Assembly: GCA_051313645.2 (NCBI GenBank)
Contig: JBNRSN020000010.1
Location: 96,472,001 to 96,536,000 of the forward strand
Source: Centroscyllium fabricii
Lineage: Eukaryota
DNA: 64,000 nucleotides
Direction of reading: 5' to 3'
Made by a program: the position numbers and the translations under genes. The notes beneath the pieces were generated by a model. That model did no database searches. It was not told the DNA's origin and saw nothing but the letters and a program-made list of their open reading frames with translations. Numbering within the stretch: position 1 is the first letter of the stretch; the number at the start of each line of letters is the position of its first letter. Positions 4,481 through 62,899 of this stretch are shown here, in pieces.

Positions 4481-7327
4481 AAAGGAGTGCACTGGAATGG
4501 AGGTACTCAACCAGAATACAAAAAATTATATGATGAAATATAATAATCTTGTATAATTTTATGTTCATTTGAATTGCATTTTGTTTTAAGTTGCCTCAAA
4601 TGAAGTAAAATGTAAAGGTAAGTTATGTAGGACCATCTAGTCAGAGATTCGATTGACATTAAAAACAACATATGCCCAGCCCTGAAGCAGACGTTTTTAG
4701 TAAAGCTTGAGACATGCTGCAATCTGTCTTCTGAGGAGCTGTTCAAATCGCCGACAAAATTTTACAGGATTCACCTGATAATTTTTCTTTTTTTGCACAA
4801 GCATCTCAGAATTGAAACCCTTTGTTGGTGAGGAGAAAGAAGACCACAGTGAGCACCTCAAGCAGCCCACAATGGAAATCTTTTGTCAGGGAGGAGGAAG
4901 ACCACCACAATAAGCACCTCAAGGATGGCATATTTGACCAAAGTTTCCGCTTTACAGAAGCCACCAATTTAGATAGCTCAAAATCTGAATATACGCTGAT
5001 TCGTAGAACCCTTCATGCAGTGCATGCATCGATCACCGCCAGTAGCTTTCATACAGTTTGTTTTACCTGCTTTCCTGTGGGCTGCGGTCGTATCTGTGCT
5101 GTAATCATTGAGATCAGTCCTCACAACAGATCAAGGAGTGATCAGAACCATTTTATAGTGACTCAGTTGAAGATTGGCGGGGTGGCCTTACAGGTTTTTT
5201 TTTCCCGGCATAGGAAGCTCACTATGCACAATACAAATCTTGAATGTCCAGCTGAAGTATGGTTGCATTTAATTTTACAAATATAGCTTCAAGGATCCAG
5301 CTAGGTCAGATGTGGCAAGGCTCACTGGACAAATACTATTTCTCATCAAAGCAGACTGCTGTGCTACAGCAGCAGTTTACATCTTGGACTTGCTGAGGTC
5401 TATCACATTTGCTTTGCAGCATGGTATGGATTAATCTAGTGTCACACCATTCGAGTAACAGCAGCATTGACTGCAAATGCTTTTGCCAAGAACAGCATAT
5501 TTGATGCCTAGATCAAAACATTACTGCAAGTTTCATGGGAAATTGCACAAAAAAACTTCCAACGGCCCAGTTAAGTGTTTCTCATTCAGCTGATGGGCTA
5601 TTGACCATCCCAATATAGTATCAGCCCTTTTGTAAGGCTTCTGAGCTCTAGCATAAAATGGCCCATTGCTTGGGCCTGTGATCGACACCAAGCAGACCTA
5701 TGCTAAAAGGCTTTCACCACAGTTCCTTTTGTGGTTTCAACCATCTTCCAGTCTCCCAGCAATGACTTGAGGGATATTCCATAACTACATTGTTGACATT
5801 AGTTTCAGCATGTACAATTAGTAAACTACAACCCCTTATTCTAGATCAGCCTTATGGTTGATTTTGGAATTCTGATTAGGTGGTTTTTAGAACTCAAAGT
5901 TCCTACCAAACATTTCCCAGGTTTAGTTGGGTCCATTGCTTTTATCTACACCAATCTGAAGGAAGATATCATTTTCATCATTTTAAAAACTCGTACAGCA
6001 TCAGGTTACTGTTTATCTCATACAAAGCAATTTCATAAATCTCGACTATGCATTTGTTTGCTACGATCCAATCGATGCTGGTGACTGAACAGTAGATATC
6101 TAAATAGAGGCTTGCGTGCTTTCTATGCAAGCATAGGTTAAAGGTCATTCCACTGCTGCTTCTAGAGCACTTGTGTCAGGTTCTGATTGATATTTCCAAA
6201 GCTACTACGTAGAGTAATACACACACAGTCTAGATTTGAGTGCTGCTTGCAGTTATATCTTTGTTAGATCTGTGGTGGCAAATGCCGTTATGGCTGCTCT
6301 GCAGGGGACTACCATCATCCCTGAATTGGCATTACTTTGGTATACTCATATGGTATTGTTCCCTTTGTTCAGTCTTCATTTAAAAATAATATGCACCTTC
6401 CAAATGATCAGACTGAACCGTTTCCTCTAGCCTTGTGATGGTATAGGTCTTGGGATTTGCTAGTTAGTTTCTGTTTGTTTGCGTTCAGGTCAAAATGAAC
6501 TGGCACAATGCTACAGTTCCTGGTGCTTTATAGGATATGTGAACAGGACACCATGTGCAACACCGTAGATTTATTTTACACGGATGCGGAGGTGCATTTT
6601 ATGGCAAATATTTTCTCCAAATACAGTCCATGTATCTATTTAGTCAGTTTCGTAGAGGTTTAATCGTTCAGTTCATTACAAATTTTCTGTAGCAGAAATT
6701 AAGGAAACTCTTATTATATAAATTGGTTTAGGAAATGTGATTTTTTTTCAAATCTGCTAGCCTAAAACTTCACTCAATTTCTAGGTAAGTGTTTTGTATC
6801 TGCTTCTCTGTTTAGCTCAACATATGGAACTGTTCTCAGTGATATTCTGAGCTGCCTATGTGTCAGTATGTAGCTGGTTTTCTAAAGGCTTTCTGCTTGA
6901 ACAATCGTATTCTTCATGTCGTTCCCCTCATTTGCTTCTCGTCCCACCTTCACCACCCCCCTCCCCCAAAAAATTATCTAGTTGACTGGAATAAGGAAAC
7001 AAAAGAAAGTAAAGAATTTAGTTAAAATATTGCTGACCATTTTTGAGAATGCTGGTTGGACTGGCAGAATGAACATCTGTTTGTTCAGAATATCAGCTGA
7101 GCTCTTTGGTTTATTTTTGTCCGAGTTTTGGTTCTATAAAAGCAAAATTAACATTTTGTAAATATTTTTGCATTAATTTTTAGTTTCTACTTTTCTAGAG
7201 ATGCAAGCGAAAGTTTTGGCTGCTCCTTTAAATGATTTGCACAACCTTCTCAATCATGCTTCCCCAGGATTTCATTTTGCTTAAAACGGGGGTTCATAAT
7301 AGTCGTCATTTTTTGGTTCTGTTCTAG

Positions 7328-40500: not shown

Positions 40501-43500
40501 AATCTGAATGGTTTTTTTCAAATTACTAACTGTTTTAAAAGACAATTACTTTGTCTTTATTTTTCTGAAAATAATTCTGCTAAACCTGAGAGCTGTTTAA
40601 CTGAAAGTACCAATACAAAAATGTTCCACTGAGTGTGCATTTTTCAATATGTATGTATTTTCCAAAAAAGTACAATTATTTTGTTGCCTTCAAATTTTAC
40701 ATGCTTACTAATAATTCTGTGCATATTTGATTAGGCCCCCTCTATTTGTTTTCATAGGAACTTGTAATTAAGAGTATTTTAAAGTCAGCAAGGGAAGAAC
40801 CTTCTGGGCCAGCTAGGTAAGTATTTCCAATAATGATAACTGGTAACGCAAATCTTGCTATCAATATGATGCCTATTTTTGTGCTGATGAGGAATAGAAC
40901 ACGTTCTTATTTCAGATATTCGGGGATAGCATCCTAGACTCCCTGGTCAATTACAGCACAGCCAGCAGCCGAATAAAGTTCCTTCCACTCAACCCAACCA
41001 CAATAAAGTACTCAATGCACCACTGTGGCATGTCTATTTCCTAGTAATTCTGTGGCCTCTTAGTCCATTTGCCATGTTTGTTTTGAGCCTGTACATAGTA
41101 AGAACTGGGTTAAGTTTGGCCTAATTTTTTTAATGTAGGATCCTTTAGGCCAATAGGGAGATCGGGTTAGTCTGGCTGGAGTCAAACCAAAATCCCAGAA
41201 GTAAAAGGACTGTGTACCAACCACTGCCATCCAGTTCTGCGCTTCTCCCATAATATCTTTAATATTAGTGCAGTAGTGTGTCTCATTCTCTGGTTACTGA
41301 TTTTAATATATTAGATAATAATTAGTGTGTGCAGTTTCTGGCAGATATAACAGGATGGTTAATTTACTTCATTTTTGATTTGAAATAATCTGAACATGCG
41401 ATAAAGATTAAAATAACTATTTTCTGAATGGTACATTATTGGCTTTCAGATATTTTCATAACTTTGATCTATTTTATATAATTTTTATTTACATAAGAAC
41501 ATAAGAAATAGGAGCAGGAGTAGGCCAATCGGCCCCTCGAGCCTGCTCCGCCATTGAACAAGATCATGGCTGATCTGATCCTAACCTCAAATCTACTTTC
41601 ACTCTCCATCCCGTCCGAACCCATGATAAATTCAAATTTTATTTGTCATATGTACTACAATGCAACGAGTGCAATCTAGACAGTGAAATGCTTTCTTTAC
41701 GGTCCGAGCGCACTGCGCAACAAAGAACACTAAGCTGCCCAGCACTCCCGGTGCCCGTAAGACGGCAACCACTTCACCGGCGCCATCATCATAGGTCCCG
41801 TTCTCGCACCGCTCCGGCCTCTCCTGCTCTTAGTCCAATGTTCTTCAAAGAACTGCAGCCCATCCGCCCGTCAGTCGCGAACACGATGATGCCACCGCTG
41901 AAGTCAAAGCCGCCAGTTCCAACCACAGAGCTTGGCTTACACAAAGCAAACTGCCTCCCCACTCCACAGTCCCAAAGTCCACATGAGCTATCTGCAGAAC
42001 CGGTCAACACCTGCCCCATGTCCCAGTCAACGTCCACACACCATACAGCTCCGGCGCGTCCATTGCAAGTGCCGAGCCTCTCGCCGTCCAGGGAACACCA
42101 GACACCAGCACAGGAGAACACCAAATCACCCCCCTGGCTGCATTCAACCTGTGCGACCGATCATCCACGACCCCGCAACAAGATGGGCCTCATGGCGGCT
42201 GCTGGTGTTGATTGCCCGGCCGGCGGCCTCTCACTCACGTCTCGGCACCCCACAGATCCACTGCATTCCTGGGAAATGGACATTCGCTGGTGGAAAGTTG
42301 GGTTGTTTCCCAACTACTGCCCAGCGAAAGCCCATGAAACTCTTATGCCTGGTAAAAGCAGGCGTAGGTCCTTTTATCAGCGTAAGAGTTTAAATATATA
42401 TTTAAAAAATGTTTAATTATTTACTCCCAAAACTGTAAAAATTAGTTATAGGTTGTTTTTAGCCCCTTTAAAATGGTTAAATTTATTTTTCAAAAATATT
42501 TTTTGTTTTAAATGTTTAATTTAATTGTATTTTAATTAATTTTGAACATGTAATTTACTTTTATTTAACTGGTGTGTAATTGTGTTTTTTAGAGGATTCC
42601 TATTCATGCTTATGGGGCTTCCATACGAAAATGGAATCCCCATAGGCATAATGGGATCCCCCTTTTTGATTGGTTGACCTGACCCACGTGATCCATGGGG
42701 CACTTGTGACCCGCATGCGCCCCTGGGATATTTGGGCCTTTGCGCATGTGTACGTGTAGAGGCCCAGGAGCTCGCGTCTATGAGCCTCCTGGACCATCAG
42801 GTAAGTTCATATTTTTCTTGTGGTTCGGAAGCCTCCAACTGCATATTCAGGCCCCTGATGTGAATTACTATCTCTTTTGCAGATGTGTTGCACTTTGCAG
42901 CCTTGGCATTTGGCTTTGTGAAGAATTGGTACATGGTACTCACCATCCTCAAATCAAAGATGCTCTAAATGTAATCTGTGTAACCTTAAAGGTAAGACAT
43001 TTTTTCTATAGTGATTTTTGTTACAGTTCAGCTTTTGAAAATGCCATATCAAAATTTTAAAGAATAAAATAAAACTTGTTAAAATGTATTTGCAGTTCCC
43101 AAACAAAGCAGTTGCGCAAGTGGCTTGTGATATTTTGCATTTATTGATCAATTATGTGGACAAGCTTCAAAATTATCCACCAGATTCTCCAAAAAAAATT
43201 CTTGAGGTAAGATGCATTTATTTATTCTATTGATTGGATATTAGCCTGTGAAAGTATTCTCAGCCAGTTAAGTTTATTGGCTATGCATGCTTGCATTGAG
43301 TAAATGGCTGGTTAGCTTACCAGGGATGATCATTTGCATTTATACAGCACATTTAACATAGAAAAATATCCCATAGCACTTCACAGGAGAAAAATATCCC
43401 ACAGCACTTAACAGGAGAGTAAACAGGCAAAAATTGACACCGAGTCAAAAAAGGAGATATTAGAAACTGTAACTAATAGCTTCATCAAAGAGGTAGATTT

Positions 43501-62162: not shown

Positions 62163-62802
62163 GGGCCATAATTTGCAACCCCCTACGGGTGCATACAAGG
62201 TGTGCACATGCCCATAGGGACCATGCAAGTTCCGGAATTAGGCATGCAAAACACATAAGCGAAAACCCAGAACTTGCGATCTGTCAAGAATCTTCTTGGC
62301 AGATCCTCCCTATCCCCAACTTCTGCCCAGCAAATGCCCTTGAAATTCTTACGCCTGGTAAAAGTAGATGTAAGACCTGCTTTTATTAGCGAAAGAGTTT
62401 TTTTTTAATAGAAAAATAAAATGTTATCACTCATTTATAGATTAAAAGCCCTGTCCAATAAGACAAGTTTTTAGCCCCATTAAAACATATAAATTAAAAT
62501 GGCATTTTAATCCATTTTAAAAACGTAATTTTTTAAAACTTATTTCATGTTTATGTATTTTTTAGGTGATCCTCATTCATACTTATGGGAGTTCCGTACA
62601 TACGGAATCCCCATAAGTATAAATGGGGATTCCCCTCCTTTTATTGGTTAGGCCATCCCACCTGGGATACGTGGGCCTCTACCTGTGGGTATCCGGAGAG
62701 GGCCAGGCGTACGAATCTATGAACCACCAGGTAAATTCGTAGATTTTTTTGCAGGTTGGAGGCATTTGCCTGCGGGAAGCTTCCGACTGCAAATTTTGGG
62801 CC
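62163..62802. mobile_element. PIF/Harbinger-like MITE
   Basis: TIRs gggccataatttgca / tgcaaattttgggcc. Confidence 0.7.
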
Positions 62803-62899
62803 AATGTCTCTGGATCCTTAATCCAGGCCTCAGGATAACTAGTCCAGTAACATAACCAGTATGCTACTGTACTCCTGTACTGAGGTTTTATATAAATTT

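Follow-up and report, generated by a model that had tools for sequence, protein, structure and literature searches.

The window, i.e. the whole 64,000-nucleotide stretch of DNA analysed here, contains at 42253-41628 on the minus strand a 5′-truncated member of a retroposon family of about 694 nt (family A). This copy lies antisense inside an intron of a RalGAP-alpha gene and thus is itself a case of a host intron carrying an antisense element copy. The features of the locus are the following:

41492..41627, minus strand: last 136 nt of a CR1-type LINE subfamily, a separate neighbour outside the element
41628..41669, minus strand: Rex1-type LINE tail with a TGAATT-type repeat at its end, the true 3′ end of the element
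41670..41790, minus strand: GC-rich core of the 3′ module, beginning gatgatggcgcc at 41790, unedited
41791..41849, minus strand: first part of the 3′ module (family nt 465-525), with homology to family C
41813..41831, minus strand: inner arm of a 19-bp inverted repeat, family nt 485-503
41850..42193, minus strand: spliced EIF3I coding fragment, exons 1-5, to codon 120, with its ATG at 42193
42194..42253, minus strand: part of the EIF3I exon-1 5′ UTR, family nt 38-105
42254..42854, strand not given: MITE-like repeat, left end short by about 80 nt, abutting the truncated 5′ end of the element
42883..42991, plus strand: host-gene exon, RalGAP alpha subunit (match at E 2.7e-11; splice sites read from the sequence)

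Read on the minus strand, the coordinates reproduce the order given in the preliminary description, namely 5′ UTR, EIF3I coding part, the segment beginning gatgatggcgcc, a tail and a CR1-type end, and they agree with its statement that poly(A) and the 3′ half of EIF3I are missing; the coding part stops at codon 120. Translation of the minus strand yields the EIF3I N-terminus with one stop, the head matches EIF3I in the PDB (E 6e-35), and its best protein matches are ray and shark EIF3I. The coding fragment is hyperedited and possesses an in-frame stop at codon 11 as well as a 15-nt deletion at the exon 2/3 joint. The copy lacks family nt 1-37, including the left arm of the inverted repeat.

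The repeat at 41627-41492, which we take to be CR1-type, is 92-94% identical to six other copies, which run upstream into a LINE coding end, and gave 214 hits in 137 of the 269 loci (1.17 Mb of fetched DNA). It is thus a very common repeat, unrelated to family A. Among 113 family copies only 3 are followed by a CR1 tail in the same sense, and these three differ from one another in CR1 position or distance; hence the earlier view that it forms part of the unit, which would make the element two-tailed, had to be abandoned. The loss of the left end of the MITE had been noted correctly, with about 80 nt missing at the truncated 5′ end of the element. The missing piece was not found on the far side of the element (alignment score 29.5 versus 73-83.5 in two intact relatives), and another, more complete member of this MITE-like family is located at 62200-62860 of the window. 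In 54 full-length copies no consistent target-site duplication was apparent, a longer local repeat being present in 2. A single insertion that deleted target DNA between the CR1 3′ end and the MITE would explain both truncations and the absent target-site duplication.

An EIF3I head on a shared 3′ module

Using a 3′-half protein query, we located the intron-bearing EIF3I source gene in the same genome. Its exons 1-5 yield the head of the family, which corresponds to the spliced first 464 nt of the EIF3I mRNA with the introns removed. The fusion to the module follows coding nt 359 at codon 120, inside exon 5 and 41 nt before its donor, and the consensus of the nearly unedited copies is identical to the gene at 422 of 453 positions. 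A processed copy of the EIF3I 3′ half was not found among the 7 matches of 27 scored candidates. An L1-type processed pseudogene was rejected as a classification because, although the introns are gone, the mRNA 3′ end, poly(A) and a consistent target-site duplication are absent.

Searching the genome with the head returned 958 first-look candidates as DNA and 1385 as protein, figures that are not copy numbers. The best 30 loci have the head, the junction and the module in common, 28 of them extending to the equivalent of window position 41628 with TGAATT-type repeats, and hundreds of relatives have their end at this first, Rex1-type tail. When a consensus was built from the least edited copies and 151 loci were projected onto it, 132 remained once overlaps had been removed, of which 122 retained 200 nt or more of coding head; the 45 loci added from a pattern census brought the total to 167 copies, a sample biased by the queries. 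The module is present in 159 of them, with the same junction and the same 3′ end across copies. A pattern of 25 nt, in which A or G was allowed, occurs at 64 places, one of which is the EIF3I gene, and both TA sites are kept in 15. From its match rates in the sample (11/23 unedited and 7/87 edited copies), a rough capture-recapture estimate would put the head-bearing copies at some 25-30 unedited and about 600 edited ones. The earlier guess of a multi-copy family is substantiated by the candidate searches, the A/G-tolerant pattern and the 167 fetched copies, and that of a composite non-autonomous element by the combination of the EIF3I head with a shared 3′ module. Two near-unedited heads stand in tandem 2.4 kb apart at one locus (L138).

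Contigs of the organisms A, B and C cover head and module, those of organism C bridging the junction by at least 31 letters on each side. On the plus strand, T>C places number 78 in organism A and 80 in organism B, as against 14 for A>G, which equals A>G on the element; organism A may be the source of the assembly itself and is thus not independent. The contigs of organism F have zero cover on the module, which is not evidence of absence.

The 3′ module comprises 230 nt and is common to family A and two sister families, B and C. Over its last approximately 200 nt (family nt 493-694) its similarity is 74% to family B and 81% to family C, and the likeness to family C begins at the EIF3I junction. 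What had been described as a spacer of no known origin is hence the 3′ module of these sister families. In the family A consensus, nt 1-19 are the perfect complement of nt 485-503 and form the 19-bp inverted repeat. The first 19 nt of family C pair at 17 of 19 positions with its own module start, in a register shifted relative to family A, and in family B the pairing is weak. Compared to shuffled sequences, the module folds better (z -2.4) and the head does not (z 0.35). Family B (also L119-L137) is a young retroposon of about 780 nt with 95% identity, 3175 first-look candidates and a different GC-rich head, one reading frame of which had no match in the PDB at E up to 10. Family C (L243-L271; 6090 candidates) comprises about 600 nt plus a variable tandem repeat of about 78 nt and is related to family B along its length.

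No tRNA, Rfam family or A/B boxes, the latter searched as simple box patterns, were found in the EIF3I-headed element, and a classical SINE head (tRNA, 5S or 7SL with Pol III A/B boxes) was accordingly rejected. Family A is SINE-like in being short, multi-copy and equipped with a LINE-shared tail, the similarity to the partner being modest. Full-length copies possess subfamily-specific 5′ leaders, at most about 30 nt long, which abut a 5′ core and whose As stay unedited. We take the words in these leaders to be CRE-, E-box- or AP-1-like and the core to be ETS-like. A convergent antisense promoter at the inner arm was considered as a possibility; this arm lacks the ETS-like core of the element 5′ end.

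The last 47 nt of the module resemble an abundant LINE at its 3′ end (about 78%), with a score of 55 versus a maximum of 49 among 1000 shuffles, and a second test gave 59 versus 47.5 for the best of 500 shuffles. This LINE encodes an endonuclease, a reverse transcriptase and PF09004, has teleost relatives at 55-70% and returned 131042 candidates. We call this LINE and the tail of the element Rex1-type, an assignment that we presume from PF09004. The proposed likeness of the first tail to Rex1/Babar ends is thus upheld by a match above shuffles. A second LINE family was matched less consistently: in two of its three copies, 2 and 34 out of 500 shuffles reached the score of the tail. This second family (L272-L307) is very young, with reverse transcriptase and PF09004, 99% identity between copies and 1644 candidates. 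Rex1 elements have been described as LINEs with endonuclease and reverse transcriptase whose conserved 3′ region is followed by oligonucleotide repeats (PMC6274825), and high Rex1 coverage has been reported in rays (PMC13343379). Family A likewise has a conserved 3′ region with oligonucleotide repeats that resembles an endonuclease- and reverse transcriptase-encoding LINE. By sequence likeness, family A is likely mobilised by a Rex1-type LINE, and the LINEs compared here are candidate partners, with a tail identity of only about 78% over 47 nt and inconsistent scores for the second family. When the module was compared with the 5′ ends of both sampled LINE families, no match exceeded shuffles; an origin of the module from a bipartite LINE found no support in these two families.

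Recurrent A>G hypermutation of the head

Compared to the EIF3I gene of this genome, the window copy reads G at 48 of 97 aligned As, an excess well outside chance next to a single T>C; the remaining differences are 7 C>T, 2 G>A and 8 transversions. In its 3′ module 2 of 50 As are changed. When copies with at least 12% of their coding As read as G are counted as hypermutated, 142 of the 167 carry such sense-strand A>G changes, and together they exhibit A>G at 6306 of 13969 coding As (45%) versus T>C at 235 of 11917 Ts (2%). The edited copies form about 38 patterns at a clustering distance of 0.20 (30-45 for distances of 0.25-0.12). Two or more copies are found in 18 of the 38, the largest having 27, 21 and 17 copies, and the 17-copy pattern is that of the window. 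Since these 18 patterns have several dispersed copies, edited copies acted as new sources; segmental duplication among copies was found for two pairs only. An excess of shared edits over the site-rate null (z>3) is limited to 5 of 703 pattern pairs, and the strongest of these are single copies with edits added to the 27-copy pattern, i.e. re-editing. The preliminary description had suggested counting copies with the same A>G set and assumed that the mRNA piece was already edited when captured. Instead, the patterns are mostly independent, and nearly unedited copies that match the gene exist. Editing took place later than the capture, on element RNA, and many times.

Editing depends on the 5′ neighbour of the A. 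Over the 38 patterns the edited fraction is 484/621 (0.78) after T, 616/1171 (0.53) after A, 427/1162 (0.37) after C and 166/916 (0.18) after G, and the depletion of 5′ G is significant at the level of sites (p=2e-11, first 18 patterns). A 3′-G enrichment is absent (38 patterns: G 0.46, A 0.47, C 0.42, T 0.40). As G is reported to be depleted upstream and enriched downstream of ADAR sites (PMC4365171, PMC8096273), one of the two features of this motif is found here and the other is not.

The changes are confined to one part of the element. Observed over expected editing amounts to 0.6-1.2 at nt 1-464 and 0.37 at nt 465-484, and lies at background beyond. At nt 465-484, A>G is seen at 33/251 As in edited copies versus 3/173 in unedited ones (p=1e-5), and from nt 485 at 13/258 versus 9/167 (p=1), with 5/871 in the tail. 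Editing hence spans the head, passes the junction and ends at about nt 480, shortly ahead of the inverted repeat's inner arm, and the module is spared. A 1-nt frameshift that is specific to the element and impossible for the gene forms the background of 25 of the 38 edited patterns, and edited copies retain the 5′ arm, which does not derive from the gene. Both observations argue that element RNA rather than host mRNA was edited.

Among the first 122 copies, subfamilies differ from the unedited consensus by 35-71 A>G and only 2-11 other changes, and their members are 3-4% from their own subfamily consensus, like the unedited class. Such subfamilies therefore appear old and diverged though they are not far from their own consensus, which calls for caution in dating and annotation, as edited subfamilies mimic old, diverged ones. 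In subfamilies of 25, 17 and 20 copies, editing raises the CpG count of the head from 25 to 34-38 and its GC content from 52% to 61-64%, and CpGs made by editing decay like native ones (62/593 versus 60/681). No A>G excess was observed in 19 copies of family B and 29 of family C, all of them best hits to unedited queries. An edited family C searched as a three-edit pattern gave 0 matches; the family A control recovered a median of 8% of copies and zero in 15% of 130 windows. The sparing of family C from editing is thus suggestive only.

Proposed origin and life cycle

We consider it very probable that the window carries a 5′-truncated copy of a multi-copy, EIF3I-headed and LINE-tailed retroposon whose A>G changes are likely ADAR edits fixed by reverse transcription. 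Two steps of its history are observed directly: the spliced EIF3I head was fused within exon 5 to a module in use by families B and C, and the copies consist of a small unedited class and about 38 edited patterns. The other steps are conditional. Since exon 5 is cut mid-exon and not at a splice donor, a single origin by template switch from a C-like RNA onto EIF3I mRNA may be assumed. Transcription by Pol II would start from the CpG-rich exon 1 and the CRE/ETS-like 5′ leader, a putative promoter judged by its motifs, and the LINE reverse transcriptase would recognise the tail. The head would pair with antisense element RNA, ADAR would edit the duplex and reverse transcriptase would read I as G. 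The 19-bp stem and the folded module might be spared because they stay closed or because selection keeps them intact. The stem alone is insufficient to explain editing, as family C pairs at 17 of 19 positions yet is apparently unedited, and self-folding of the head as the ADAR substrate was rejected, its folding being no better than that of shuffles. We favour antisense element RNA as the duplex partner of the open head, a pairing that would not in itself account for the sparing of family C; the missing 3′-G enrichment and the lack of an inverted head at the loci searched speak against this model.

An alternative that differs only in the origin of the antisense strand is a fold-back source, i.e. 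one or more source loci whose transcript contained the head a second time in inverted orientation and so supplied the hairpin for ADAR. Hyper-editing has indeed been reported to occur usually in nearby inverted repeats (PMC4365171). However, no inverted head was found near any of the 151 + 45 projected loci, where most flanks comprised 1.2-2 kb and sources may have been lost; the 10 kb on the downstream side of 20 mostly unedited copies and the rest of the window likewise contained none. Moreover, several backgrounds were edited each, with and without the frameshift and with different 5′ leaders, so that we regard this source as unlikely.

A biased reverse transcriptase or an imbalance of nucleotide pools instead of ADAR would be in line with the absent 3′-G preference and with the report that human L1 RNA is not edited by ADAR1 in culture (PMC5224506). 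Against this stand the strong U>A>C>G bias of the 5′ neighbour, the sharp domain boundary within one RNA, an A-rich tail that is untouched and the lack of an A>G excess in families B and C, which share the module; we therefore deem such a bias very improbable. We assign an equally slim chance to repeated recapture, according to which antisense element RNA pairs with host EIF3I mRNA, ADAR edits this mRNA and reverse transcriptase repeatedly switches onto it. It would account for the near confinement of editing to the EIF3I part and for the unedited look of family C, but it is largely refuted by the element-specific frameshift of 25 patterns, by the non-gene 5′ arm that edited copies retain and by editing that extends about 15 nt beyond the gene/module junction, and could apply only to some of the 13 patterns without the frameshift. 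Least credible of all is a one-off two-tailed chimera of already edited EIF3I mRNA made by successive template switches onto Rex1 and CR1 tails: the parts do abut gaplessly in the same orientation and tripartite template-switch chimeras are on record (PMC4476161), but the hundreds of relatives terminating at the first tail refute it for the family, same-sense CR1 follows so few copies and at such differing positions and distances, and unedited copies exist.

Going beyond the edited, LINE-tailed retroposon that we prefer, we tentatively raise a broader reading, which we hold to be somewhat less probable than its opposite. Here a Rex1-dependent platform would swap its 5′ heads, including host mRNA, and keep the pairing between 5′ end and module, and in the EIF3I-headed family ADAR editing would belong to the regular life cycle. 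Almost all transposing RNAs would then be hyperedited, the likeness of the head to host mRNA would be broken and edited copies would outbreed unedited ones. If this were true, RNA editing would act as a heritable driver of retroposon subfamily birth rather than as a defence.

Comparison with known elements

By analogy, the closest counterparts of family A appear to be SVA_F1 (MAST2 exon 1) and chimpanzee pt_SVA_D6 (STK40 exon 1), described as composite non-autonomous elements that exchanged their 5′ part for the GC-rich beginning of a host mRNA and amplified thereafter (PMC6139936). A tandem-repeat middle as in SVA is found here in the sister families B and C. Unlike SVA_F1 as described there, family A has five spliced exons that are cut mid-exon and not spliced to an acceptor, a LINE-type tail in place of poly(A)/L1, pervasive A>G editing and an estimated 600 or more copies versus 84-94 in SVA_F1/pt_SVA_D6 (PMC6139936). 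Because a splice junction, L1 and poly(A) are missing, family A is not a member of this type.

Family A further resembles the U6-L2, U6-Mon-1 and U6-AnolisSINE2 chimeras, in which a 5′ piece of a cellular RNA is joined to a LINE/SINE 3′ end, and template-switch chimeras of stringent LINEs have been proposed as the birth route of SINE families (PMC4476161). Unlike the U6 chimeras of that account, family A captured a Pol II mRNA, and the chimera then sourced many further copies. With the cartilaginous-fish SINEs SacSINE1 and CmiSINE (PMC5499810) and HE1 (PMC3747384) it shares a short, non-coding build, the tail of a partner LINE and the exchange of modules; these SINEs are described with tRNA heads and L2/CR1 partners, in contrast to family A, which is without tRNA, A/B box and Rfam match. 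Bipartite non-autonomous LINEs are likewise of Pol II type and can gain a new head by template switch, but the account in PMC5786205 names only RTE, Ingi, Vingi and R2, and the module of family A is unlike the two LINE 5′ ends compared. Clustered one-strand changes are also known from ADAR A>G hypermutation of avian retroviruses. They are similarly fixed by reverse transcription in the APOBEC G>A editing of LTR elements (PMC4866542); unlike in that report, the changes here are A>G, affect most copies of a non-LTR, non-autonomous family, and edited copies founded subfamilies.

Neither an EIF3I-headed element nor a genome-fixed ADAR-edited non-LTR family was found in the open full-text literature, a search whose scope did not extend to Repbase or Dfam, where a consensus of family A may already be deposited. 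Family A is a real mRNA-headed retroposon family with recurrent heritable hyper-editing that is probably undescribed so far. It demonstrates that the start of a protein-coding mRNA can head a successful SINE-like family beyond primates and L1, and it provides a large fossil record of likely germline A-to-I editing, in which a single known substrate of 460 nt was hit independently dozens of times. As this genome also contains the source gene and the unedited ancestor, it becomes testable in vivo whether ADAR restricts or helps non-LTR retrotransposition; for human L1 in culture, restriction has been reported to be editing-independent (PMC5224506).

Some further arrangements were seen in the fetched DNA. 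Nested insertions among families A, B and C and a LINE occur at four loci (L117, L175, L132 and L156), e.g. as a family A copy within a family C tail. A 130-nt unspliced EIF3I piece (exon plus intron, 96% identical) lies beside a CR1-type tail (L309:5065-5194, G000:C800), and a family B copy is inserted in sense within an EIF3I intron (L085:6290-7050, G000:C834).
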